Source of the DNA: a virus
Taxonomy: Duplodnaviria; Caudoviricetes
Virus record (IMG/VR): IMGVR_UViG_3300003877_000002
Span: 1-50,291 of that record
Length of the DNA stretch: 50,291 bases
Direction: 5' to 3' (one strand)
Shown here: positions 3,653 through 29,722 of the stretch, one piece after another
Layout: every line of letters starts with the position of its first letter
How positions within the stretch are numbered: the stretch's first letter is position 1
Position numbers and translations under genes: made by a program
Notes under the pieces: model-generated
What the model saw: the letters and a program-made list of their open reading frames with translations, nothing else
Databases searched by the model: none
Told to the model about the DNA's origin: nothing

Positions 3653-4162
3653 TCACTCTTTTTTATCTCCAAATATAACTATAGCACTAGGGAAGGGTGC
3701 AAATTGCCTTGCATTAGTCTTAGGATGTCTGATAGGCTCACCTCTAATTTCAAATGCTATCCTGCCTTTAATGAAGCGTACTTCTGCGTAAGGTATTACG
3801 TAGTCATGCCAGTAACGTGTATCTGTCCTAGAGGGAATTAACATAACTACTGTAAAACCAAAGTCCCTGCTTTCTTCATATGCCTTCTTAATCCAATGTT
3901 TTAATTCTGTGCCATAAGGCGGATTTAGGAATATAGCATTAGTAGTAGGATCAATGTAATCTTCCCAATATACAGTTAGGGCATTAGCATCTTCAGTAAA
4001 AATACCTAGCCCATATTCTTTTAACTTACAATTGTCATAAGTACAGGCAGCGTCTAGACCAAAGTGAAATTCAGCATCTAGCTCCTCGAAGAGAGACTGG
4101 GGTGTTTCCCAGTCATCTCTCTTAGAAGTGAAGTGTACCCTCAAATTTCTCTTCTTGGCCAT
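3653..4162 (-). CDS. phage DNA N6-adenine methyltransferase
   Basis: DDWETP, LDAAC, NPPYG, LIPSRTDT, FIKGRIAF. Confidence 0.9.
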   Translation of the reverse strand: MAKKRNLRVHFTSKRDDWETPQSLFEELDAEFHFGLDAACTYDNCKLKEYGLGIFTEDANALTVYWEDYIDPTTNAIFLNPPYGTELKHWIKKAYEESRDFGFTVVMLIPSRTDTRYWHDYVIPYAEVRFIKGRIAFEIRGEPIRHPKTNARQFAPFPSAIVIFGDKKE

Positions 4163-11579: not shown

Positions 11580-12815
11580 TTATCCTTTAATATTAATTAG
11601 GGGACTAATGTAAGCAACTACTTCTACTAAATCTCTCTGCAAGTTCATGACTTCAAAGATATTCTTATAGGCTCCGGGTGACTCATCTAGTGTATCTTCT
11701 ATAACTAGAGCTTGTACATCTGCCATAGTTCTTTGGAAAAAATTAAAATCTAAGTCTCGTTTAGCCTGCTTGCGACTCATTACACGACCAGCTCCATGAG
11801 AACTTGACCAGAGAGATAGGGGATTGCCCTTACCTTTTACGATAAATGAGCCATCTCGCATATTACCGGGAATTACTCCCAGCATACCTTCTTCCGCGTG
11901 TGTGGCACCCTTACGGTGAATCCACAGACCATTACGTTCTACAGCATGATTATGGTTGCGATTGATTAATTCATCGAAGCTAGGTTCCCAGTCTACACAC
12001 CCAAGTACATGACTAATAATATTAATAGTTCGTATCATCATTGTTTTACGATTCTCAAGGGCATACTCTAGACACCAGTTCATATCCTGAATATAGTTCT
12101 TACCTTCCTGTGATTCTACTTTAAAGTTATAGTGTCCTTCTTTAGGACGTGCTCTACCCATTCGCTTATTTACCCAATTACTCTTTAACTTTTCGTAGCG
12201 ATCAGGGTTGTATTTAAGTACATCCTTATGTCCTTCATCAAATTCATCTTCAAGTATACCTCGATCACTAGAGGCTAGTGTCATATAATGTGTAGCAATC
12301 GCGTGTCCTACACCTCGGCTACCTGAGTGTATTACAACCCATACATTAGCTCCGCCGTCTACACCAATCTCAATAAAGTGGTTGCCTCCACCTAGAGAAC
12401 ATAGAGCTCTGTTCCAGTTTTTAAGGGCTGCGATTTCCTTACCACGATTAGTCAATCCTGCTATAGGATATACATTTCTTTTAGGATCATGGGCTTTACT
12501 AATATGGAACCCTACAGGAATACGCGTATAGATCAGATCAAAGATTTCTTTACTATGTTTAATTATTTGCTTAGGATCAATACCCTCTAATTTCAAGGCA
12601 CACATACCGCAACCAATATCATAACCTACCCAAGCAGGTACTACTACACCATCAGTAGCTACTACAGCTCCAATGGGTAGAGAGTAGCCTGTATGAGCAT
12701 CTGGCATAAGAGCACCAGCTACTACAAAGTCTTGTGCCATAGCACTATTGAATTGTTCTAGTGCAGTGTCTTCAAGTATCTCTGCAAAGATATTAACTTG
12801 TTTTTCTGTTTTCAT
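11580..12815 (-). CDS. rtcB: RtcB family RNA ligase
   Basis: MPDAH, GYDIGCG, GGGNHFIE, HSGSRG, NHNH, HRKGAT, HGAGR, DESPGAYK. Confidence 0.96.
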   Translation of the reverse strand: MKTEKQVNIFAEILEDTALEQFNSAMAQDFVVAGALMPDAHTGYSLPIGAVVATDGVVVPAWVGYDIGCGMCALKLEGIDPKQIIKHSKEIFDLIYTRIPVGFHISKAHDPKRNVYPIAGLTNRGKEIAALKNWNRALCSLGGGNHFIEIGVDGGANVWVVIHSGSRGVGHAIATHYMTLASSDRGILEDEFDEGHKDVLKYNPDRYEKLKSNWVNKRMGRARPKEGHYNFKVESQEGKNYIQDMNWCLEYALENRKTMMIRTINIISHVLGCVDWEPSFDELINRNHNHAVERNGLWIHRKGATHAEEGMLGVIPGNMRDGSFIVKGKGNPLSLWSSSHGAGRVMSRKQAKRDLDFNFFQRTMADVQALVIEDTLDESPGAYKNIFEVMNLQRDLVEVVAYISPLINIKG

Positions 12816-13173: not shown

Positions 13174-13972
13174 TATTCAACACCTTATCTAGTAGACACA
13201 AGTTAGCCTCGTGATAATATTCTTTTGACACATCTTTACTCTTACAAAGAAGATCATTTGTAAAACTTTGAATACCAGTATCATCATGTATTTTACTAGT
13301 AAATACATACTTCTTACAATCTCCTATAGATCTAAATTGCTCAACAAAAGGATTCTCCATAAATTTAGAGAATTGTTTATAGTTTTTACTTATTGTATAT
13401 AAGATACCATAATCAGTTCCAGAATTATGTTGAGCTATGAATTTATTGATACCTCCTTCAAGGGTATCAGTATAATCATATTTCTCTACTCCATAGAAAG
13501 CACAGCGTAATAGTAGAGTAAATAGAGACATTACAGGAGCATTATTTAAGAATATTCTAGGGAAGGTTACAATATAATTATATTTTCCTGTTATACTAGT
13601 GCCTATATCTCCGAAGACTACTTTAGTTTCTTCTATACGGAAATAACTACCTGTCTCTTCACAAAATAAATCAAGTAAATGCAGATCTTTAAGCTCTTCA
13701 TCAAAAGTAAGTAACATTTTAATCTCAGAAGCATTGTACATACTCTGAGAATAGTCCCAAGTAAATCCATATATCTCAAATGGATAAGCACCATTAGTAT
13801 TTTGGTGATATACTACGTCGTTAAAATAGTCACGGCACTTAACTAGTGGCATTACATTCTTGTAGGTATCTGTACCATTAACTTTTTGTAACAGAGCGAA
13901 TCTGACTGCTTTAGTCTGGCTATTCTCAGTAAGACCAAGCCTACCTTGGCTATATAGTTTTACAGTATCCAT
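13166..13972 (-). CDS. hypothetical protein in the amidoligase cluster
   Basis: 268 aa, overlapping both neighbours. Confidence 0.75.
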   Translation of the reverse strand: MDTVKLYSQGRLGLTENSQTKAVRFALLQKVNGTDTYKNVMPLVKCRDYFNDVVYHQNTNGAYPFEIYGFTWDYSQSMYNASEIKMLLTFDEELKDLHLLDLFCEETGSYFRIEETKVVFGDIGTSITGKYNYIVTFPRIFLNNAPVMSLFTLLLRCAFYGVEKYDYTDTLEGGINKFIAQHNSGTDYGILYTISKNYKQFSKFMENPFVEQFRSIGDCKKYVFTSKIHDDTGIQSFTNDLLCKSKDVSKEYYHEANLCLLDKVLNNV

Positions 13973-14817
13973 TATTTATGTTTCTCCATATAAGTTTCAA
14001 TTGCTTTTATGTAGGCATTAAAGGTAGTAGGACTTGACATTCCCGGTGCTGAGTTGACTTCACATACTAGAGCTTCTAGAAGCATTCCATTATCACTGTA
14101 CTTAGCTAAAATATCTACGCCACAATAATCTGCACCTACTGCTTCTGCTGCTTGTATACCGATTTCTTCAATGGTACCTCGACTAGGTAGACCTCCATCA
14201 CAAATTAGATCCTTGTGTGCAAATACCCATCCCTTCTTATGGTTACGTGTAAGCTCATCTACTTCTTTAATACCTCTTTCAGCACGTTTTTTAGATCCCA
14301 TTCGCTTCTTCTGTATTAGATCAATGGCTACTCCATCGAATACATGTACTCGAAATTCATGTGTCTTATCGAAGAATTTTGTATATAGAGGAGCTGAAAC
14401 AAGATCACCTTTATTTTCTACTAACTCAATACCTTTACCTTGTTTTCCATTAAGGATGTGACGTATAATTACTTTATCTCCATTATCGATCCATATTCTT
14501 GCATCAGCACGTACAGTGGACATAGCTAAACAAGGCACTTCTTTTGTTGATAGTAGCTTAAGAGTAGTTAGCTTATTGACGCAATTACCTACGGCACTAG
14601 GAGAGTTGATCATCTTAACTCCGCGTACTGCTGCATCTTCCCACCAGATAGGTAGCTGGCTACGGCCATAGTTAAATACAAATGAGTTATCCTTTACTTT
14701 AATGTTAGGACGATAACCACATGTTACTTGGTTTGCATTAAAATGGTTAGCAAGCTTACGACCTACTCCCGGTACATCCTTACGTACACGCAAGATATTT
14801 AGTTTTTCATTGAACAT
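13972..14817 (-). CDS. ATP-grasp (RimK-like) ligase
   Basis: NKLTT, QGKGI, EFRVHV, GVDIL, EVNSAPG. Confidence 0.9.
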   Translation of the reverse strand: MFNEKLNILRVRKDVPGVGRKLANHFNANQVTCGYRPNIKVKDNSFVFNYGRSQLPIWWEDAAVRGVKMINSPSAVGNCVNKLTTLKLLSTKEVPCLAMSTVRADARIWIDNGDKVIIRHILNGKQGKGIELVENKGDLVSAPLYTKFFDKTHEFRVHVFDGVAIDLIQKKRMGSKKRAERGIKEVDELTRNHKKGWVFAHKDLICDGGLPSRGTIEEIGIQAAEAVGADYCGVDILAKYSDNGMLLEALVCEVNSAPGMSSPTTFNAYIKAIETYMEKHK

Positions 14818-14832
14818 TATTTTTACTTCTCC

Positions 14833-16152
14833 TTAGTCAGAATAAAGTTTTTCAGCACAGTCATAGCAGATTGGGTCATCTTGTAGACTCCAATCAAGAT
14901 CTTCTGCATCATCAACAGAGAGATTACAGCTACAAAAAGAACAACCTCTCTTAATTAGTTTCTCATACTCCTCTTCAGTTATATTTTTACCATCTGGCCC
15001 AAGTACCATTTTAATCACGTTATTGTCTTCTTCCTCTGGAGCTGGTAGTTCCTTTACTACGTGTAGTTTAATAGAATCTCCTTTGAGTACCAGTTCATAT
15101 CCACCAGTCAGCTTATAGGCTCGTTCAGCTACACCAGTAAGGTTAGTAGTTTCTGTAAGTATACCGTCTTTCTCTAGATCAGACAGCTTAACATTATACG
15201 CTACAACTAAATCTACCACACCACTAGAGGTAATTGTTTCACCTTTAATAGTACCAAAATATCCATCAGCTTGTTCAGTATACTTAGTTACTTTAAGTTT
15301 AGAGAACATAATTACTTCATTTTTTATATAGCCTATATCTAGTAACTGTTTTTCTGCTGGTGTACTATAAGTATTATGTTTAGATTTACCATTACCTTTA
15401 CCAGTACCGTAACCACCATACCAATCGGAATCAGCCCACTTATTAGTAGGTGCTAATATATCAAAAGATTTCTTACTCTCTTCAATTTTAGTAGCTCCTA
15501 ACTTAAATGTAAAGTGTCTACCGATAGGTAATTTTTCAACCGCTTCGAGGTTATATGTTTTTGGCATAATACCACTAATCATCCAAGGCTCAGAGGCGTA
15601 GAATAAGGCTTTCCCATCAGTGGAGTAAGCAAAGTGCATAGGCCTTTCATCGTTTCTAGCCATATGTAGTGTGTGGTCTGTAGAGTCATACCATACTAAA
15701 GCGTATGCCCCATCTAACTTTGGTAAAACGTCCTCTGCTCCAGCAGTTGAGAAGGCTTTACAAATAGCTTCGCTATCTGTAGGGAACTCATTTTTTAAGC
15801 CATTAAAAGAGATTAGTGTGCCATTATGTACTAGTGTTATATTACCATGTGAAAAAGGATGTGCATTTACAGCAGTCTTTTTACCCTTAGTAGCCCAGCG
15901 ATTATGACCAATTACATAATCATAAGTATCTATATTATATAGTAACTTATCTACTTTAGCCATGTTAATAAAATCATATCCTGCCATAGCTTTCTTATAT
16001 AGAAGAATATCTTTAGAGGCTTTTACTAACGCTAGACCTGTGCTGTCCTCACCTCTGATTGTATCTACATATAGAGCCTTCTCTAACCAAGCTCTGCGAG
16101 CTGTCCAGTTGACAGATTTTTCCATTGAGATCATTCCTACAATTCCACAAAT
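14833..16152 (-). CDS. class II (Ntn) glutamine amidotransferase, probable AUU start
   Basis: The frame extends upstream of the track ORF to ATT-TGT-GGA-ATT-GTA-GGA (CGIVG); RGEDSTG, GHNRWAT, NAHPF, HNGT, TDSE. Confidence 0.92.
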   Translation of the reverse strand: MCGIVGMISMEKSVNWTARRAWLEKALYVDTIRGEDSTGLALVKASKDILLYKKAMAGYDFINMAKVDKLLYNIDTYDYVIGHNRWATKGKKTAVNAHPFSHGNITLVHNGTLISFNGLKNEFPTDSEAICKAFSTAGAEDVLPKLDGAYALVWYDSTDHTLHMARNDERPMHFAYSTDGKALFYASEPWMISGIMPKTYNLEAVEKLPIGRHFTFKLGATKIEESKKSFDILAPTNKWADSDWYGGYGTGKGNGKSKHNTYSTPAEKQLLDIGYIKNEVIMFSKLKVTKYTEQADGYFGTIKGETITSSGVVDLVVAYNVKLSDLEKDGILTETTNLTGVAERAYKLTGGYELVLKGDSIKLHVVKELPAPEEEDNNVIKMVLGPDGKNITEEEYEKLIKRGCSFCSCNLSVDDAEDLDWSLQDDPICYDCAEKLYSD

Positions 16153-16224
16153 TTTCTCATCTCCTAGACTAATAAATTAGTCTGTTAGTTTACCCATTTC
16201 CAATGGGTGTGGGTTACAGTACTA

Positions 16225-17145
16225 CTACTTTTTCTCATATTCAGATAAAATTTTAAATACATCCCATTCCGCCATTTGTATCTCTGTTGGGTGTGTTAGT
16301 TCTCTAACTAACAATAGAGCCTCCTTCATATTACTCCTCAGTTTATAATTAAAATCAATTACTGTATTATCAGGTAAGACTCTTTTTACAAAAGACTCTA
16401 AACCAAATTTGTGTATATCTTTTAGTATATCTTTAGGATCTTCATATGCTATAGCTGTTTCATATATACTTATAAGTATATTTATCCATGCCTTAAGCTT
16501 TACTGTGCTGTAACACCCTTGTAGCATTCTATATTCTATAGAGCCAAACTTACGCAATGCTGCAAAGTTTATACCCGCATATCTATAACCGTCACTAAAT
16601 TTCTGCATCATTTCATAAGATACATTGAAGGATAAATCTTTACTTTGTATATTAGTGCGTATATTATGTATTACTTCTTGTTTATCTGTTATTGGCAGAG
16701 AGAAAGGAGATAGAGATCTATACTTTCTACAGTAAGCAAATAATACAGGCTCCATAAAAAGAGATAAGAGTATAAAATTAGTAAGTTTATTTGTATCCAA
16801 AGATCTAACATCGACATGTACGTGTGTACTTGTCCTATAGCTGATTATTGGAGTTAGATCATTACTTATAATATAGTTCTCTAACTCAGTAAGTGCTTTG
16901 ATAGTATCAAAAGTACCTAATGGTAAAGAAAACCTAGCTTCTACTGCATCATCTCCGCGTAAAGAGTCGTCATAAGTGAATGCCCAATAGATACTAGTAT
17001 CACTAAGTTCTTTGATAGGACAATTTTCTAATTCAATTTCTATACCTAATAGAACATCGGAAGGAACTAATTCAGTAGAAGTCTTAAAGCTTCTAGGATC
17101 TGCTTGGTGGCTTGTAAGGTTTACAACTGGTACATTTTTATACAT
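16225..17145 (-). CDS. putative amidoligase (COOH-NH2 ligase fold)
   Basis: GIEIE, DDSL, THVHV, RYAGINF, GSIEYRMLQG. Confidence 0.88.
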   Translation of the reverse strand: MYKNVPVVNLTSHQADPRSFKTSTELVPSDVLLGIEIELENCPIKELSDTSIYWAFTYDDSLRGDDAVEARFSLPLGTFDTIKALTELENYIISNDLTPIISYRTSTHVHVDVRSLDTNKLTNFILLSLFMEPVLFAYCRKYRSLSPFSLPITDKQEVIHNIRTNIQSKDLSFNVSYEMMQKFSDGYRYAGINFAALRKFGSIEYRMLQGCYSTVKLKAWINILISIYETAIAYEDPKDILKDIHKFGLESFVKRVLPDNTVIDFNYKLRSNMKEALLLVRELTHPTEIQMAEWDVFKILSEYEKK

Positions 17146-17815
17146 CTATAATCTCCACAGTTATTTGTCCATGTAATAGACAGATTAGATCTCTTTTTAG
17201 AAAAGCAAGAGACTTAGGCACTAGAAGTTTATCAACCAGTACCCCTATTAGATTATTTTTATAATAGAGTACTAAAGAGTTTTTTATCTTGCCTAAAGCT
17301 AAGTGTCTAGTTATTACTGCACTGTTAATTTTACCACTATTTATAGCAGAAATGGCTTGTTTAATAGAGTAAGTTTTATTACGTAATAGCCCATGTAAAA
17401 AATTATTATGATCAGTAGTGTACTTAACTTCCTCCTTCTCAAAAGGGTTTACTGCACTTGGGAGCTTAGTTAAGATAGTCTGCACATTATGCTTTAGTGT
17501 AAAAGATCTCTTCCATTGCTTCATATGATCAGCTTGCATATAATAAGCATCTTTTCTTAGCTGTACATAGCCTGAGTTTTTATATACAGGATAGAATTTA
17601 AGTTTAGTAAAATTTAGTACTCTGTCATATTTTTTACCATTTTTATATAAAATACCTTCCAAGAGAATATCATTACCTATTACAGGATTCTCTCTAAAAC
17701 TATAGCGTACTTCTTGTATAAAAAATAAATGCTCTCCTTTTTTATCTAGCTCTTTAATCGCTACATATGTATTTTCAAATTTTACTTGAATTTCTTTAAG
17801 TATATCTAGTTTCAT
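17138..17815 (-). CDS. hypothetical protein in the amidoligase cluster
   Basis: 225-aa basic ORF. Confidence 0.7.
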   Translation of the reverse strand: MKLDILKEIQVKFENTYVAIKELDKKGEHLFFIQEVRYSFRENPVIGNDILLEGILYKNGKKYDRVLNFTKLKFYPVYKNSGYVQLRKDAYYMQADHMKQWKRSFTLKHNVQTILTKLPSAVNPFEKEEVKYTTDHNNFLHGLLRNKTYSIKQAISAINSGKINSAVITRHLALGKIKNSLVLYYKNNLIGVLVDKLLVPKSLAFLKRDLICLLHGQITVEIIDV

Positions 17816-17859
17816 TAGAAGATAGCCTCTTCTGGTACGGTTTGTGGTGCAGTAACCAT

Positions 17860-18705
17860 TTATACTTGATCAATCATAAGGTCATCAAAATAGGAACTTT
17901 TAGGCATTCTAATCTCATTCTCCTTAATAATACTTTCAGCCATATCCTTATCGTGAGTGTCTATACACTTTCTAATCTCTTCAAAGAACTTCTTTTTATG
18001 GCTAGATACAGTAACTCTATAATCATATGCTCTATTAGCTGCTTGAAATATCCATTTCATTAGTTGTTTATTCTCAAGCCAAAAATTAGATGGTGTGCGA
18101 TACTCTACTCCATAAGGTTTAGGTCTAAAGCAACCAGCCTTGCCATAGAGACTACGTCTTTCTTTATCAGGATCTAATAGAATGGAGGGTACTCCAATAA
18201 ATAAATCACACATTAGTATAGTGTTAATCTGTTCTTTCATGTTGATAGTACTTTTAAAGCCAATGTGGATGTGACCAGCAGCAGTACGTAAGTTTTTAGC
18301 CATACCACTATTTATCTGTGTTGTCGTGTCTAAGTGCCATACGTTATAGTCTTCGTCACAGCCGAAAGCCTGTGCTTCTGGATGCAATAATAAATCTTCA
18401 CTCTCCCCTTCATAAAAATGAGAAGGCTTAATGAGATACTTCTTACCTTTAGGCTCAAGATATTGTTTATCTATAGCTTGTAGAGTCCATAGTATATTGT
18501 GTACAAAGGTAGTTGGATGTCCGGCGGGACATATGTTCAACTCACCTAAAACATTATCTCGATGCACTGATCCTTCTTCACATACTTCTACCTGCTTATC
18601 CTTAGTGCCGGGGATAATACCAATTGCAGTCTCAATTTCTTTACTCGCTATATCTTGTATGAAAAATTCTGGGTCTGCTCCAATTAAAGTACTGCTCATT
18701 AGCAA
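17860..18705 (-). CDS. phiEco32-like COOH-NH2 ligase type 2
   Basis: IGADPEFF, DNVLGE, FGCDED, RTAAGHIHIG, RRSLYGKAG, YGVEYRTPSNFW. Confidence 0.92.
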   Translation of the reverse strand: MLMSSTLIGADPEFFIQDIASKEIETAIGIIPGTKDKQVEVCEEGSVHRDNVLGELNICPAGHPTTFVHNILWTLQAIDKQYLEPKGKKYLIKPSHFYEGESEDLLLHPEAQAFGCDEDYNVWHLDTTTQINSGMAKNLRTAAGHIHIGFKSTINMKEQINTILMCDLFIGVPSILLDPDKERRSLYGKAGCFRPKPYGVEYRTPSNFWLENKQLMKWIFQAANRAYDYRVTVSSHKKKFFEEIRKCIDTHDKDMAESIIKENEIRMPKSSYFDDLMIDQV

Positions 18706-18739
18706 ATCTCCTTAATGTCAAGATTGTGGTATAGATATT

Positions 18740-19366
18740 TCATAGTAGTTTGTCCTTTAAAGTTTTAATGAAAAATTTGAATCCTTCAGAGCTTTCAGAC
18801 ATCCATTCAGGATGATATTGAAAACCTAAGCAGCGAGTAGTAGGCCAGAAGACTACCTCTGGTTCTCTCCCTGCTAATTTACTGTGAAAGTTTTTAACCT
18901 TTACTTTACCTCCTGTCTCGAATACTGTAGACTCTTTAGCCCACGCTAGGAGCTCATAGTCTCCCTTCGGATAGATCATTTGATGATGATCACCAGTAAC
19001 AGTAAGCATTTTATCGTCAGGTGTGTGGATTATATGATCACAAGAGTTGTGATTGTTTACATGTTGAATCAATACACCACGGTTCATTACATTTAAGAAT
19101 TGAGCACCACGACAAATACCTACCATAGGTAGTTCAAGTATCTTACAGTGGTTATATACTTCAAGCTCAAAGAAATCCCTACTCTTGTCTGAGTAGGTTT
19201 TGTCAATTTTATTATCGTCATAGAAGTAAGGATCTACATCAGATCCCCCAGTAAACACAACTAGATCACAGTCAGCTAATTTACTGACGTTACTAATCGG
19301 TTTACCAAGGGAAGTAAATGCATCCTTATACTTATTATTATCACCTTCAAGTACTAATATTTTCAT
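18740..19366 (-). CDS. class I glutamine amidotransferase / peptidase C26 (gamma-glutamyl hydrolase-like)
   Basis: FTGGSDVDP, GICRGAQ, QYHPE; start at 19366 after AGGAG. Confidence 0.9.
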   Translation of the reverse strand: MKILVLEGDNNKYKDAFTSLGKPISNVSKLADCDLVVFTGGSDVDPYFYDDNKIDKTYSDKSRDFFELEVYNHCKILELPMVGICRGAQFLNVMNRGVLIQHVNNHNSCDHIIHTPDDKMLTVTGDHHQMIYPKGDYELLAWAKESTVFETGGKVKVKNFHSKLAGREPEVVFWPTTRCLGFQYHPEWMSESSEGFKFFIKTLKDKLL

Positions 19367-19578
19367 CTTTCTCCTAGTCCGTATCTTTCTATATCTCTTC
19401 TGCCTACTTCTCCATTCCAACAAGCTAAACAACAGGGTAATAGAGGAGCTTTTATATCTTCTTGTGATACGTACCAAAACCCAATATCATCAGCAAAATC
19501 ATTAACGTTCCCACAGTGTCCACAAATTATTCCGTCTGGATCATCTATTTTTGCTAATTCTAAATCTTTATCAAACAT
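19363..19578 (-). CDS. small Zn-finger-like protein
   Basis: CGHC...CLAC; likely start MFDKDL. Confidence 0.55.
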   Translation of the reverse strand: MFDKDLELAKIDDPDGIICGHCGNVNDFADDIGFWYVSQEDIKAPLLPCCLACWNGEVGRRDIERYGLGER

Positions 19579-23294: not shown

Positions 23295-23516
23295 CTAACT
23301 GGCAGCCTGTACAAGGCTGGTCGATGTAATATCAGGGATAGTCACAGTAACCTGTACTGGTATATAGTTGCTTAGTTCAGTATTACTGTCTGATGGATCA
23401 TGTTTGTTTATTCTATTCACGGCATATTCCATCACTGCTTCTTTAGAATGGAAACAGAACGCACCGATACTATCTGTCTTAGGGTGATAACATACCCAAG
23501 TTGTCTTATTCTTCAT
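23295..23516 (-). CDS. first early gene, hypothetical
   Basis: AAGGA RBS, 73 aa. Confidence 0.65.
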   Translation of the reverse strand: MKNKTTWVCYHPKTDSIGAFCFHSKEAVMEYAVNRINKHDPSDSNTELSNYIPVQVTVTIPDITSTSLVQAAS

Positions 23517-23551
23517 ATCTATATCCTTTTGTATTGATTGAACATGTATAC

Positions 23552-23592
23552 AGCTTAGCAGACTATTACAATAAAAACATGATCTAGATCAA
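23552..23592 (-). promoter_or_regulatory. extended -10 promoter with upstream FNR/ANR-like box
   Basis: TG-C-TAAGCT at 23552-23560; TTGAT-CTAG-ATCAT at 23579-23592, centred near -40.5. Confidence 0.45.
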
Positions 23593-23669
23593 GTACTTGA
23601 TTATCTGATCGATTGACTGATCAAGCGGTCAAAAAGCTGACCTATTACAATGAGCTATATATAAGGTGT

Positions 23670-23698
23670 AGCATACCATATCCCGTACTGTCTGTCAG
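23670..23698 (-). promoter_or_regulatory. sigma70 early promoter
   Basis: CTGACA-N17-TATGCT with extended TG. Confidence 0.75.
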
Positions 23699-23712
23699 TG
23701 TAATACCAGCGA

Positions 23713-23861
23713 TGGCACTGTAATTGAATAGTAAGGGTAAACCCCTATATAGATAGTTATTGCATGACCGGGTGCAGCCAGCACCTAATTAGGCACAAAC
23801 TTTGCACTTGCAATAATGATGCCAAATATCACACCAACTGGTAGCTGGCATAGCCCTTGCA
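23713..23861. promoter_or_regulatory. cluster of sigma54-type -24/-12 boxes
   Basis: Three exact GGCAY-N5-TTGCA boxes (23791 +, 23809-23824 -, 23846 +) and one near match (23713 +). Confidence 0.7.
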
Positions 23862-24032
23862 TGGTAGTGACTACTAACTTGAGAATCTAAATCGAAAGCA
23901 TTCTTATTCAGCCAAAGTCAAGACCCCCCAAGACCAAAGATGAGAACTGGCCAATCGCGATAGGAGCATAAGCTAAACGCAGATACTAAATTTTTCACAT
24001 TTTTATGACTTTGTCATGGCGCTTCACGCCTC

Positions 24033-24052
24033 AGAGAGAGAGAGAGAGAGAG
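24033..24052. repeat. (AG)10 microsatellite
   Basis: Read directly from the sequence. Confidence 0.95.
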
Positions 24053-24232
24053 TTGGTTTAAAATTGCAATCCCACCCTCGGCCCAGAAAATTAATTTTAA
24101 TTCTTCAACAGCGAAGCTCCCTAGAGGGTCGCTGAAAGTAGATAATCTGGGCCTTCGTCCGCTCCCACTGATCATTAGGATAAGAAGTAAAGTAGGGAAA
24201 TTCAGGGATTTAGAAAATATATTGAAAATAAA

Positions 24233-24261
24233 TTGAACTAAATACAAAAAAACTTGTCTAA
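24233..24261 (+). promoter_or_regulatory. ECF (sigmaE/AlgU-like) promoter for late genes
   Basis: TTGAAC-N17-GTCTAA with A-rich upstream tract. Confidence 0.65.
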
Positions 24262-24542
24262 TTTGGTAATTATTTACTTTACTTAGCGATTAAGTGAAAC
24301 TTAGAGCTTTAGTAAACGGAACGAAGAGACAAGTAAAGAGTCTCTTGAACCATTTCAAGAGCGACAAGAATAATGTTTGTAAAGTTAACTTAGTTAAGTT
24401 TACTATTATTCGACTTTACAATTGCTTCTTAGCTTTAAGGCACGAAGCCCTAAAAGCGTAGTGACTGAAAGAAAAGAAGAAAGAAAAGTCTCAGGAAGTT
24501 TATAAACTTCCTTCGACCAAAAGAAAGATAGGAATATAGATC

Positions 24543-25118
24543 TTGCCTAAACAGAGAGTAAATAAGAACTCCCTAGAGGAGTTTGATATTAAAAGTATCT
24601 CTCCTAAAAGAGAGAGTACTATTATGGCAGGTGAAGCTCTGTCTCTTGAGGACAGAGTAACAGCTTGTATGACTTACTTCCTGACAGGGTCTTACACTAA
24701 GACAGCTAAGGCTGTCGGAGCTAGCTACGCTACTATTCTTAAATGGAAGGATATGGAATGGTGGATGCCTACTCTTCTTATCTGTAAGAAGAAGAAGCAA
24801 GAAGAGCTGGATATAGTCCTGACAACTTGTATACATTCTGCCATTGGACAGTTATCTGACAGAATCTCTGAAGGTGATTCTAAGTTAAATAGAGATGGCG
24901 ACCTGATTAAGATACCTATGACAGGTAAGGACTTAGCTTCTAGTATGGCCCTCCTCTTTGATAGGAGAGCCCTGATTAGAGGTGAACCTACCTCTAGAAC
25001 TGAGACTAGTGGAGAACAAGGTAGACTTGACAATCTCCAGAAGCAGTTTGAAGAGATGAGCAAGGCGTTCAACGCAAAGACAATAGAAGGAACAGCAGAA
25101 GTAGTTGAAGTAGAATAA
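24543..25118 (+). CDS. terminase small subunit
   Basis: HTH-like GSYTKTAKAVGASYATILKW, helical body, RGEPTSRTE; first late gene, upstream of TerL. Confidence 0.75.
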   Translation: MPKQRVNKNSLEEFDIKSISPKRESTIMAGEALSLEDRVTACMTYFLTGSYTKTAKAVGASYATILKWKDMEWWMPTLLICKKKKQEELDIVLTTCIHSAIGQLSDRISEGDSKLNRDGDLIKIPMTGKDLASSMALLFDRRALIRGEPTSRTETSGEQGRLDNLQKQFEEMSKAFNAKTIEGTAEVVEVE

Positions 25119-25120
25119 TT

Positions 25121-25196
25121 GCCTCTCGAGCAGAACTGGCCCTGCACCTGTTTTGTAATCAGGAGATACTCAGTTCAAGTCTGAGTAGAGGCTCCA
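25121..25196 (+). tRNA. tRNA-Thr(UGU)
   Basis: 76-nt cloverleaf, loop TT-TGT-AA, TTCAAGT T-loop, encoded CCA; mismatches at 7:66 and 31:39. Confidence 0.85.
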
Positions 25197-25283: not shown

Positions 25284-25359
25284 CGCTCTTTAGTGTAATT
25301 GATAAGCATAGGGGACTTTGACTCCCCTAGTCTAGGTTTGAGTCCTAGAAGAGCTGCCA
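25284..25359 (+). tRNA. tRNA-Gln(UUG)
   Basis: GGGGA-CTTTGAC-TCCCC anticodon arm, CTAGG/CCTAG T-stem, encoded CCA. Confidence 0.9.
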
Positions 25360-26164: not shown

Positions 26165-27670
26165 ATGCTAAACACGGATACCATTTACGGTTTTGTAACA
26201 ACAATCCTACAGAGTCGTTTTGATTCTCCAAAACCAATCCCTGATTTCCATAAGGAACTGTGGGAACTCTGTACAAGCGAAGAAAAGCAAGTAGCAATAG
26301 CGGCACCAAGGGCGCACGCTAAAAGTACTTCAATCACACATTCCTATGTATTAGCTAAAATGCTCTTCAGAGAGAGTTCCTACTGTTTAATAGTATCTGA
26401 TACTGAAGGACAAGCTATTCAATTCCTTGGTGATATTAAGAAGGAATTAGTAGAGAATGACCTACTTCGTGAAACTTTCGGAATTACCCTCACTAGGGGT
26501 AAACTGACTAAAGATACTGAATCTGTAGCTATTTGTACATTTGAAGATGGACAGCAATTCAGAATTGAAGCTAAAGGTTCCGAACAGAAGGTACGCGGCC
26601 TTAAGTGGAGAAGTCTACGTCCTGACCTAATTATAGGGGATGACCTTGAGAATGATGAGGTTGTACTCAACGAAGAAAGACGCTTTAAGTTCCGCCAGTG
26701 GTTCTTTAATGCTCTCATACCTTGTGGTTCTGATGAATGTCTCATACGTATTGTAGGTACAATCCTACATATGGATTCCATGCTAGAGCGTCTTATGCCA
26801 GCATGGGGAGATAAGGATACACAGACAGATGGACTTAAGTTCTGGACAACACAGAAAAGATCTTGGAAGTCTGTTAGATACCAAGCACATAACTCTGATT
26901 TCTCACAAATGCTTTGGCCTGAGAAGTTCTCAAAAGATAGACTTGAGAGAATTAGAGCTACTTATGTAGAACAAGGTTTCCCTGAAGGCTATTCACAGGA
27001 ATACCTGAATTATCCAATTGATGAAGAGAATGCCTTCTTTCGCAAAGAAGACTTCCCACCGATACAAGATACTGAAGAAAACGTAGAATATTACGTAGGA
27101 GGTGATCTAGCTATCTCGGAGAAGGACAGAAGAGCCTACTCTGTATTTGTAGTTGCAGCCCTTGGTTCAAGTGGCAAACTTAAAGTAGTGGAAGTAGTTA
27201 GACAGAGAATGGACTCTCTAGAGATAATTGAAGAAGTCTTTCGCTTACATGCGAAATTCCATCCAGTTGCCTTCTTTATTGAAAAGGAAAATATTGCTCG
27301 TTCTATTGGCCCTATGTTAAACTTGACTATGCGCCAGAGGAATATATATCCTAATATCGGTGATGATACAATGATTGTACCGTCACAAGATAAGGAGAAG
27401 AGGGCTCAAGCTATTCGAGCTAGGGCTAGGGCTGGTGGAGTAGAGATAAACCATGATGCGTGGTGGTTCGACCTATTCATAACTGAATTAATACAATTTC
27501 CTAGAAGTAAGTATAAAGATCAAGTAGATGCTTTTGCTATGATTGGCTTAGGCCTAGATAAGATGTTAGATACCCCTACTCTACAAGAGTTAGCGGACGA
27601 AGAATACGAAGAAGAAATGGAAGAGGGTTTATTTGGATATGACAACCAAGACTACTTTACTGGCTACTAG
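26165..27670 (+). CDS. terL: terminase large subunit
   Basis: APRAHAKS, IIGDDLE, IVGT, GGDLAIS, DQVDA. Confidence 0.95.
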   Translation: MLNTDTIYGFVTTILQSRFDSPKPIPDFHKELWELCTSEEKQVAIAAPRAHAKSTSITHSYVLAKMLFRESSYCLIVSDTEGQAIQFLGDIKKELVENDLLRETFGITLTRGKLTKDTESVAICTFEDGQQFRIEAKGSEQKVRGLKWRSLRPDLIIGDDLENDEVVLNEERRFKFRQWFFNALIPCGSDECLIRIVGTILHMDSMLERLMPAWGDKDTQTDGLKFWTTQKRSWKSVRYQAHNSDFSQMLWPEKFSKDRLERIRATYVEQGFPEGYSQEYLNYPIDEENAFFRKEDFPPIQDTEENVEYYVGGDLAISEKDRRAYSVFVVAALGSSGKLKVVEVVRQRMDSLEIIEEVFRLHAKFHPVAFFIEKENIARSIGPMLNLTMRQRNIYPNIGDDTMIVPSQDKEKRAQAIRARARAGGVEINHDAWWFDLFITELIQFPRSKYKDQVDAFAMIGLGLDKMLDTPTLQELADEEYEEEMEEGLFGYDNQDYFTGY

Positions 27671-27673
27671 ATT

Positions 27674-29722
27674 ATGAGTACTCCTGAAGAAAGACAAGCT
27701 ACAATTACTTTAGAGACACTTAATCTAGCTGAAGGCTTAGATGAAGATACTTTAAAGGATGTTGGTGAGTATGTAGTTAATATCTATGAAGAGGATCTAG
27801 AATCTAGATCTGAGTGGGAAGAGCGTAATGAACGCTGGCTGAAGTTAGCTACTCAAGTGATGGAATCTAAAGACTATCCTTGGGCAGGAGCTTCTAATGT
27901 TAAGTTCCCCCTGCTGGCTACAGCAGCTCTTAATTTTCAAGCGAGAGCATATCCAGCTTTAATTCCAGACAATAGTATTGTAAAAACTCGTGTATTTGGT
28001 AAAGACCCAACTGGCGAGAAAAGAGAACGTGGTACTCGTGTAAGCAAACACATGAGTTATCAGCTCTTAGAAGAAGATCCAGATTGGCAGGAAGATATGG
28101 ACAGGTTGCTCTATATTCTACCTATTATTGGACTCTGTTATAAAAAGACTTATCATAATGTAGCTTTGGGGCTTAATAAAAACCCTCTTATAGGGCCAGA
28201 TGATTTGGTAATTAACTACCACGCTGAATCCTACGAGAGGGCTATTAAGACCCACCGAATGTACCTAAACTCTAACGAAGTATATGAGAATATAGCAACT
28301 GAATACTTCCTTGATGTAGGTTTAGAAGACCCAACTCCAGATGAATCGGAGCATAAGGGTATAGAGGACGACCTTATTGGTCTAACACCTCCTGTACGAG
28401 ATGAGAGTGCTGCCAACGAAGGTCTAAATGACACTCCTTATGAGTTCTTAGAGCAACATACTTGGTATGATCTCGATGAAGATGGTTATAAAGAGCCTTA
28501 TATCATTACTGTAGAGAAAGACTCTAAGAAAGTAGTGCGTATATCTGCTAGATATGACCTAAAAGGCATAATTAAGGCAGCAGATGGCTCTATTGCCAAG
28601 ATTATTCCTACAGAGTACTTTACACAGTATGGTTTCTTACCTAATCCAGAGTCTAAAATTTATTATCAAGGTTTTGGTGCTTTATTAGGCCCAATTAACG
28701 CTGCCTCTAATACAATCCTTAACTTATTGATCGATGCTGGGCATATAAGTACCTTACAGAGTGGTTTCTTAGGTAAAGGTATTCGTTTAAAGGGTGGTAA
28801 GCTTAGATTTAAGCCCGGTGAGTGGAAAACTATTAATTCTACTGGAGATGATATACGTAAGAATGTATTTGCTCTCCCAGTACGTGAACCTTCCAATGTT
28901 CTATTTAATTTGCTAGGGATGTTGATCGAGTCAGGGGAACGCCTGTCCAGTGTTAAGGATATAATGGCTGGGGAAAATCCCGGTCAGAATCAACCTTATG
29001 CAACTACTGTAGCTGTATTAGAACAAGGTATGAAGGTATTTGTAGGTATATATAAACGTATATATCGTGCTCTACATGCTGAATTTAAGAAGCAGTACCG
29101 CCTTAATTCTATTTACTTTAATGAAGAAAAGTATATTGCTTTCTTAGATGAAGACGAAGCTACTCCTATTGGCCCAGAAGATTATAATATAGAGGATCTA
29201 AATATAGCACCTGCTGCTGATCCTAGCATTGTATCTGAGTCTCATAGGATGATGAAGGCTGAAAGTCTTCTACAGAAGAAGATGGCAGGTCTTCCAATCA
29301 ATACTGCTGAGGTGACTCGTAGAGTACTTGAAGTGGAAGGACATGAAGATATAGAACGTCTACTAGAGCCAGATCCACAACAAGCACCAGATCCAGAACT
29401 AGAACTAAAAGCTACTGAGCTTGAAATGAAGGACGAACAGTTCCAAGTAGAAATGCAATTGAAAGCTATGAATTCACAGTTTGAGGCATTTAAAGATTAT
29501 GCACAAGCTATGAGTAGTATGGCTAAAGCGGCTGCTACTGAGTCCAATATGCAGTCTGAAGAGTTTGTTAAACTTGCACAGACAGCTAATCAAGAGTATC
29601 AGTCTATTACTGCTCGAATGAAAGTTATGCAAGATGGCATGATGAAAGACTTCGAGGATGATGATAAGGCTGCTGATAAAGAAGAAGAAGCGGCTAAGAA
29701 CGCAATGTCCCAAGAGGGTTAA
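27674..29722 (+). CDS. portal protein (podoviral type)
   Basis: 682 aa after TerL; PWAGASNV, helical C-terminal barrel region. Confidence 0.88.
   Translation: MSTPEERQATITLETLNLAEGLDEDTLKDVGEYVVNIYEEDLESRSEWEERNERWLKLATQVMESKDYPWAGASNVKFPLLATAALNFQARAYPALIPDNSIVKTRVFGKDPTGEKRERGTRVSKHMSYQLLEEDPDWQEDMDRLLYILPIIGLCYKKTYHNVALGLNKNPLIGPDDLVINYHAESYERAIKTHRMYLNSNEVYENIATEYFLDVGLEDPTPDESEHKGIEDDLIGLTPPVRDESAANEGLNDTPYEFLEQHTWYDLDEDGYKEPYIITVEKDSKKVVRISARYDLKGIIKAADGSIAKIIPTEYFTQYGFLPNPESKIYYQGFGALLGPINAASNTILNLLIDAGHISTLQSGFLGKGIRLKGGKLRFKPGEWKTINSTGDDIRKNVFALPVREPSNVLFNLLGMLIESGERLSSVKDIMAGENPGQNQPYATTVAVLEQGMKVFVGIYKRIYRALHAEFKKQYRLNSIYFNEEKYIAFLDEDEATPIGPEDYNIEDLNIAPAADPSIVSESHRMMKAESLLQKKMAGLPINTAEVTRRVLEVEGHEDIERLLEPDPQQAPDPELELKATELEMKDEQFQVEMQLKAMNSQFEAFKDYAQAMSSMAKAAATESNMQSEEFVKLAQTANQEYQSITARMKVMQDGMMKDFEDDDKAADKEEEAAKNAMSQEG

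Follow-up and report, generated by a model that had tools for sequence, protein, structure and literature searches.

The RNA polymerase holoenzyme containing sigma54 recognizes -24/-12 promoters with the consensus YTGGCACGr-N3-TTGCW. It binds these sites unaided and stays in a stable closed complex until an activator ATPase acts, and transcription normally starts about 12 bp past the GC of the -12 element. Judging from ordinary footprints, two holoenzymes cannot share boxes that are 18-26 bp apart. Clustered binding sites of other kinds are also well known: the lambda cosB site combines terminase R sites with a site for the host protein IHF upstream of the terminase genes, and iteron-type origins contain repeats that are specific to each replicon. 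Sigma54 has been studied as a regulator of host genes, and its use by phages is barely documented. According to a passage in PMC10914365, which cites Ceyssens et al. 2008, the Pseudomonas phage YuA uses host sigma54, and the YuA record (NC_010116) contains three promoter fragments annotated as "-24/-12 consensus, high activity". Excerpts from PMC4591121 and PMC3844500 describe intragenic or "orphan" sigma54 sites in E. coli and Salmonella to which the holoenzyme is bound and which are transcriptionally inactive. No description of sigma54 box arrays in phages was found in the literature searched, and YuA was the sole phage precedent that we found.

The window analyzed here, 50,291 bp in length, is a complete virus record with a circular-type assembly, and it appears to derive from a hydrothermal vent metagenome. 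A sequence-only reading of this DNA had pointed to four sigma54-type boxes within a short stretch, the middle two facing each other with their -12 elements 2 bp apart. All four boxes are present (Table 1), and the middle pair reads TTGCA-CT-TGCAA. Boxes 2, 3 and 4 have GG at -24 and GC at -12 with the fixed spacing of TGGCAC-N5-TTGC. Box 1 does not; the GA that it carries at the near-invariant -12 GC leaves just three good sigma54 sites, and box 1 is probably non-functional. The close match to the sigma54 consensus that had been noted also holds up, and the fit is very good.

A search of the genome with GGCAY-N5-TTGCA gave three matches, all in the cluster, where 0.11 were expected, and none of 100 shuffled sequences gave three. 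The shorter pattern GGCAY-N5-TTGC likewise gave three matches versus 0.25 expected. The three exact matches fall within 70 bp, and the chance of finding three boxes in any 150-bp window, calculated from the count for the shorter pattern, is about 5e-8. With up to two mismatches to TGGCAC-N5-TTGCW, 25 sites were found in the window; with at most one, boxes 1-4 were the sole sites in the entire 50,291 bp. Thus, a similar density of the motif elsewhere in the genome, which would have pointed to chance, was not seen.

The boxes are located in a 1-kb hub in which no convincing gene was found and the GC skew flips sign (23517-24542). Left of about 23.5 kb, a leftward operon encodes, according to the PHROGs assignments, a two-part DNA polymerase, a helicase, a primase, RtcB and an amidoligase/glutamine-amidotransferase cluster. 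Right of about 24.5 kb, a rightward operon contains two tRNAs followed by the large terminase, portal and structural genes. The phage indeed carries its own rtcB, as had been stated. A second statement, that the boxes mark a probable genome end, was not confirmed. The "direct terminal repeat" of this circular-type record is a 97-bp overlap of the contig ends that lies inside coding sequence, and the assembly is therefore silent on the physical ends.

Table 1. Positions of the sigma54-type boxes and of the surrounding features in the window.
Feature	Position	Strand	Details
RtcB	11580-12815	minus	phrog_1075, E 9e-107
Non-coding hub, 1 kb	23517..24542		ORF map; GC skew sign switch; PHROGs functions of flanking operons
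Box 1, TGGCAC-TGTAA-TTGAA	23713..23728	+	Degenerate; 1 mismatch, at the -12 GC (GA instead)
Box 2, AGGCAC-AAACT-TTGCA	23791..23806	+	GG and GC intact; predicted start ~23817 rightward
Face-to-face double site GGCAY-N5-TTGCA-NN-TGCAA-N5-RTGCC, boxes 2 + 3	23792..23823		Census position L001:1693
Box 3, TGGCAT-CATTA-TTGCA	23809..23824	-	Perfect core; predicted start ~23798 leftward
Box 4, TGGCAT-AGCCC-TTGCA	23846..23861	+	Perfect core; predicted start ~23872 rightward
C6 run	23924..23929		62 bp beyond the last box
Sigma70-type promoter with A-rich upstream element	24225..24262	+	AAAATAAATTGAAC, ~18 bp, TGTCTAAT
Large terminase subunit	26165..27670	+	phrog_38, E 6e-73; 2.3 kb downstream of the box array
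Portal protein	27674..29722	+	phrog_1216, E 3.5e-22

Other features of the record and of its hub are as follows. The exonuclease and polymerase of the DNA polymerase are encoded by separate genes, and an HNH endonuclease gene is present at the contig start (42-572, 823-1581, 5216-7195). An amidoligase, a COOH-NH2 ligase, two glutamine amidotransferases and a glutaminyl-transferase-like gene form a cluster (13972-19477) that adjoins RtcB. The second tRNA (25121-25193, 40.3 bits) is an Rfam call; ARAGORN does not report it and gives solely a tRNA-Gln at 25284-25359. Four GATC sites within 42 bp (23581, 23587, 23607 and 23619) constitute the densest GATC group of the genome, in which GATC is not enriched overall (176 seen, 175 expected); a DNA methyltransferase-like gene is encoded at 3653-4162. 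Left of the boxes, CTATTACAAT is present in two direct copies and one inverted copy (TCAGTGTAATA), at 23563-23572, 23642-23651 and 23695-23705, and these repeats may be an operator or a piece of the leftward promoter. Between the C-run and the sigma70 promoter there is a (GA)9 microsatellite (24033-24051), and, further along, a 19-nt imperfect inverted repeat whose arms are separated by 36 nt (24080-24153). BLAST searches with the hub and with the 10 kb surrounding it gave zero matches among 50,697 phage records. A structured RNA was considered for the hub and dropped, because Rfam gave no family match there, even at an E value of 1 or less, and the predicted fold is just mildly better than that of shuffled sequences (z-score -2.24; 8 of 200 shuffles fold equally well).

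The arrangement seen in the window turned out to be recurrent. The double site formed by boxes 2 and 3 is expected, by arithmetic, about once per 2.7e11 bases of random sequence, and it was found in 61 stretches of a viral contig collection. Closely spaced consensus boxes are present in more than 200 viral contigs. Face-to-face pairs with a gap of 0-30 bp were found in 73 viral stretches, back-to-back pairs in 64 and tandem pairs in at least 120; the contigs are partly related to each other, and these counts are thus not counts of independent events. The face-to-face stretches yielded 68 unique convergent pairs, 41 of which have a gap of 2-5 bp, and among the geometries of what is a recurrent phage element, the pair with 2 bp between the boxes is the most frequent. 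Its gap is usually TA or AT, and the gap of the 4-5 bp pairs is usually a C or G run (TTGCA-CCCC-TGCAA; e.g. L098:1197-1232, L094:1793-1829 and L096:61-97).

The spacing of the boxes also follows rules. At 209 unique loci, the pitch was 25-29 bp in 117 of 251 tandem pairs, 17-21 bp in 166 of 219 face-to-face pairs and exactly 26 bp in 74 of 194 back-to-back pairs; the searches set the bounds of the range and did not impose the peaks inside it, and related contigs inflate the counts. Arrays reach 11-15 boxes at a pitch of 18-26 bp, and no bias in box orientation toward the terminase operon was found in them. The flanking preferences of the boxes were derived from 418 unique perfect-core boxes at other phage loci, and at positions that the searches left free they agree with the sigma54 consensus: TGGCA is preceded by T in 66%, GGCAYG is followed by a purine in 73%, and GGCAY is followed by G in 72%, the last figure being partly imposed by a later search pattern.

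Ten whole records were scanned, with boxes at both ends of a circular-type record counted as one cluster. In nine of them, including the window, all perfect boxes lie in a single cluster of about 50-510 bp, and a reversed-pattern control gave no match in any of the ten. The tenth record, a Pseudomonas Pakpunavirus, has boxes at two locations: its terminal repeat holds four, and another three lie in a gap of 620 bp at about 80.9 kb. In Pakpunavirus K5, four perfect boxes are located within the annotated 1,182-bp terminal repeat. Record G002 contains at least six and up to 11 identical 26-bp tandem repeats with one minus-strand box each (L143:5982-6272 together with L142:8-127), the figure of 11 being valid if the ends of the contig are separate sequences and not a single assembly overlap. 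These repeats adjoin four plus-strand boxes and span the ends of the 57-kb contig, and they may be the reason why the assembly broke there. Dispersed single boxes, like those of ordinary promoters, were seen in contigs L037, L026 and L063. BLAST searches against phage records gave no match for the array-bearing loci L054, L063 and L037.

The arrays have a preferred place in the genome. After clustering of the nearby proteins, the commonest neighbor was a homologue of the large terminase of the window, present at 95 of 208 unique loci, and no protein family was common to all array-bearing loci. In each of the 96 cases, the array precedes the window-type terminase gene (median distance 1,291 bp), and it lies upstream of the terminase gene as well in all four records whose terminases belong to other PHROG families (1.2-4.3 kb). 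At 38 of the 64 loci with both flanks called, the flanking genes diverge from the array. Non-overlapping ORFs of at least 150 aa, which are crude calls (longest ORFs, table 11), have the cluster on their 5' side in 812 cases and on their 3' side in 152. A run of at least five G or C was found within 150 bp of 72 of 101 unique clusters, versus 26% of random windows from the same loci. The window shows the complete arrangement: at least three consensus boxes in 500 bp and no others in the genome, two boxes face to face at a gap in the 2-5 bp range (2 bp), a C6 run within 150 bp, and a long non-coding position with divergent flanks, 2.3 kb upstream of the large terminase gene.

At many arrays, the packaging operon opens with a gene for a small protein that contains AT-hooks and DUF5681, has no solved relative and is probably the small terminase (TerS). 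Among the 26 loci with this gene, 23 have its start 218-390 bp beyond the array. In all five loci displayed, a sigma70 promoter close to the consensus (TTGACA or TTGACT, then about 17 bp and a TATAAT-like element) is present between the array and the TerS-like gene. The sigma70 promoter of the window, composed of the A-rich element followed by TTGAAC and TGTCTAAT, is kept in two relatives that do not have boxes, and an alignment of the three shows that AAAATAAATTGAACT and TGTCTAA are invariant.

The two nearest relatives (L002 and L004, whose terminases are 62% and 67% identical) contain no boxes in the DNA covered, which for L004 ends about 560 bp ahead of the gene that opens the terminase-side operon. 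Thus, the array is dispensable in the lineage of the window. In some more distant relatives (L006, L008, L010 and Manatee Spring phage), the terminase gene is preceded by one or two perfect boxes at a distance of about 1.9-2.7 kb. The hub of L002 contains two TAGTCTAGACTA palindromes together with C/G runs, and Alcaligenes phage vB_Af_QDWS535, the closest cultured relative by terminase, has the same hub with ATGGGGACA repeats, G runs and no boxes. The hub therefore seems, as far as these sequences indicate, to recruit a sequence-specific protein that differs between phages. The terminus of the Nankokuvirus PAK_P3 (62.8-63.7 kb; L300:4800-5760) contains about seven ATTGTGTAAC-like repeats, which are found on either strand, and no sigma54 box. 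Its gp113, located at the genome terminus, is described as not transcribed in an excerpt from PMC4933390; since that terminus does not have a sigma54 box, this lead was uninformative on the boxes and was dropped.

Two observations bear on what could read the boxes and what could then happen. First, the motif, including its free positions, is kept across contigs with no common protein family, with terminases of different families and with widely varying base composition. This is best explained by a conserved host reader, for which sigma54 is the obvious candidate, and we consider it probable that sigma54 is the protein that would read the boxes. Second, the earlier statement that no GAFTGA protein is encoded was borne out. 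The motif is missing from the six-frame translation of the window, and the activator AAA+ domain (PF00158) gave no match in the window or in four other array-bearing records. The sigma54 DNA-binding domain (PF04552) gave no match either in five array-bearing records, the window included.

Based on this, a closed complex formed on the boxes would not be opened by a phage activator, and the array would load a long-lived host protein block or landmark onto one stretch of the phage DNA. As the boxes face both ways, such a block would be readable from either direction. Boxes 2-4 and the nearby C-run would then be a small example of the recurrent phage element, made up of consensus -24/-12 boxes in alternating orientation, in the divergence hub upstream of the terminase operon, once per genome. 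Our preferred reading, which we put forward tentatively, is that boxes 2-4 may be high-affinity sites for host RNA polymerase-sigma54 that would work locally, by occupancy, and would mark or insulate the boundary between the early and late operons beside the packaging genes. The missing activator, the sigma70 promoters that are already in place, the dense pitch, a design that is nearly absent from bacteria, and the interchangeable motifs of the relatives favor docking, and bound complexes are more likely than ordinary promoters. Against docking, the two nearest relatives do without the boxes, dense arrays bring no simple gain in capacity, and the divergence point is exactly where promoters belong, with either orientation productive there. 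A non-promoter use had been proposed in the sequence-only reading; it is made plausible by the dense arrays, the sigma70 promoters and the near-absence of the face-to-face pair from bacteria, and the part that relied on a location at the genome end was not confirmed. In a broader form, the host sigma54 holoenzyme would serve as a structural DNA-bound protein (a landmark, a barrier, a marker of an end or packaging site, or a high-copy sigma54 trap) and not as a transcription enzyme. This we regard as possible, with considerable reservation. If true, structural docking of sigma54 would define a phage cis-element of a new class and put a sigma factor to a new use outside transcription.

The array could instead be a two-way sigma54 promoter hub, in which each box fires outward once a host activator switches on the docked polymerase. 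The activator could be independent of enhancer sites, stress-induced, or a phage protein that is not recognized as such, and the hub would provide a route of transcription independent of sigma70. The geometry of boxes 2 and 3 is compatible with this. By the 12-bp rule, their predicted starts would be about 19 bp apart (Table 1) and would point outward, one at each of the divergent operons, so that neither orientation would be unproductive. The two boxes had been said to block each other as promoters. They would indeed compete for occupancy of one polymerase-sized stretch, but with outward starts each orientation would be usable. Box 3 faces a gene starting at 23516, about 280 nt away, and boxes 2 and 4 face an ORF at 24543, about 670-725 nt away, with the sigma70 promoter between; no intrinsic terminator was predicted on the way from the boxes to these genes. 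The dispersed single boxes mentioned above resemble ordinary promoters, and YuA, which is annotated with three active "-24/-12" promoters, is described in the passage of PMC10914365 as depending on sigma54. However, no perfect-core box was found in the annotated fragments of YuA, in a search of its first 50 kb, and YuA is therefore a weak precedent. Other findings also argue against promoters: an activator gene was found in none of five records, strong sigma70 promoters are already present just upstream of the TerS-like gene, 10-15 boxes at a pitch of 18-26 bp correspond to no known promoter design, the boxes show no orientation bias toward the terminase operon, and the face-to-face design is nearly absent from bacteria, which do have real sigma54 promoters. 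Because the array sits where the promoters of both operons belong, a two-way hub stays a strong competitor, and we nevertheless consider it rather unlikely.

It is also conceivable that a protein other than sigma54 reads the boxes, as a packaging site (cos/pac, bound by the small terminase), as a replication origin (iterons) or as an operator, and that the likeness to sigma54 sites is a coincidence. Packaging sites and iteron origins typically show such features: a position shortly before the terminase genes, repeats that point both ways, and strict spacing. The TerS-like gene follows the array closely, and in other phages the corresponding place, or the terminus, carries different repeats. 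Moreover, related sequences are found outside the phages. The face-to-face pair with a gap of 2-5 bp gave five matches in 596 Gb of bacterial genomes. One of these is the same contig as a viral locus (L031) and another is a small contig, rich in boxes, that had been placed in the bin of a Saprospiraceae genome; at least one, and probably two, of the five are phage contigs. One of the others lies in coding sequence. In the remaining two, from Streptosporangium and Streptomyces chromosomes (L133:2200-2235 and L135:7934-7969), a pair of consensus boxes makes up a perfect palindrome of 36 bp (TGGCACGACT.TTGCA.ATG TGCAA...). As the Actinobacteria are not known to have sigma54, another protein evidently can use such a sequence, and some non-sigma54 protein or structure may use the palindrome in these bacteria. 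On the other hand, a motif of 12-13 positions is kept across contigs without a common protein family, and a fast-evolving phage protein would not hold its specificity in this way. A rigid dimer would not accept the range of gaps, 2 to 5 bp, that is seen between the paired boxes. AT-hooks bind AT-rich minor grooves, and not a motif such as the sigma54 box, and the TerS-like family is absent from array-bearing phages with other terminase families; we therefore judged the small terminase to be an unlikely reader. A different reader thus fits the position of the array and does not fit the conservation of its motif, which makes it improbable.

A DNA sponge, the main idea of the sequence-only reading, is a further alternative, in which the hundreds of consensus boxes of a replicating genome would soak up scarce sigma54 and thereby shut down host sigma54 regulons. 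The boxes match the consensus almost perfectly, are present in several copies and are not required as promoters; no phage activator was found, and the arrangement is specific to phages. A sponge could work from anywhere in the genome, yet the array invariably precedes the terminase operon and in most cases has a G/C run next to it. In close relatives, the same site is taken up by arrays of unrelated motifs, and a local role fits this better than titration of sigma54 throughout the cell. Furthermore, since two holoenzymes exclude each other at 18-26 bp, dense arrays bring no simple gain in capacity and overlapping boxes add little, and the window itself has three good boxes only. We consider a sponge highly doubtful. 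Finally, an accidental clustering of weak matches to the motif, to which the degenerate box 1 and a motif picked after the sequence had been read might point, is effectively refuted by three exact matches where 0.11-0.25 were expected genome-wide and by the same architecture in hundreds of contigs.

An array that is present once per genome, at a fixed place, in hundreds of otherwise unrelated phage contigs would be the sign of a common phage-sigma54 interaction that has gone unrecognized. Whether its role lies in transcription, in packaging, in the handling of genome ends or in host shut-off can be tested directly in the culturable Pakpunaviruses of Pseudomonas aeruginosa, which have the boxes in their terminal repeat. 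The array would also allow hosts with rpoN, and the regulatory or packaging hub of uncultured phages, to be marked by a simple sequence.

How, then, does the array preferred here as a local docking site compare with the systems described? YuA is similar in being a phage without its own RNA polymerase for which use of host sigma54 is reported. Unlike the arrays, its sites are single, scattered within structural genes, and neither clustered nor paired. The orphan sigma54 sites of E. coli and Salmonella, as presented in the excerpts cited above, share with the arrays a binding that is not tied to an obvious transcript, but they are single sites inside host genes, whereas the phage sites form dense intergenic arrays at one fixed place.

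The lambda cosB site resembles the arrays in that repeated protein-binding sites, some of them for a host factor, face both ways immediately ahead of the terminase genes and next to a G/C-rich element; the motif of the phage arrays is a sigma54 box and not a terminase-specific repeat. With iteron origins, the arrays have in common the direct repeats at fixed pitch combined with inverted pairs, the non-coding location, the divergent operons and the turn in GC skew. However, iterons are specific to an initiator of the same replicon, whereas the same box motif is found at loci without a common protein family, that is, in unrelated phages without a common initiator.

The bacterial sigma54 promoters, such as glnAp2, pspA and rtcBA, have the same bipartite consensus (TGGCAYG-N4-TTGCW), the same exact spacing and the same flanking preferences as the phage boxes. 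In contrast to these promoters, the phage boxes have neither an upstream activator site nor an activator gene, they are paired face to face in a way that is nearly absent from 596 Gb of bacterial DNA, and they come as arrays of 3-15 boxes in alternating orientation, at a pitch of 18-26 bp, in one cluster per genome.
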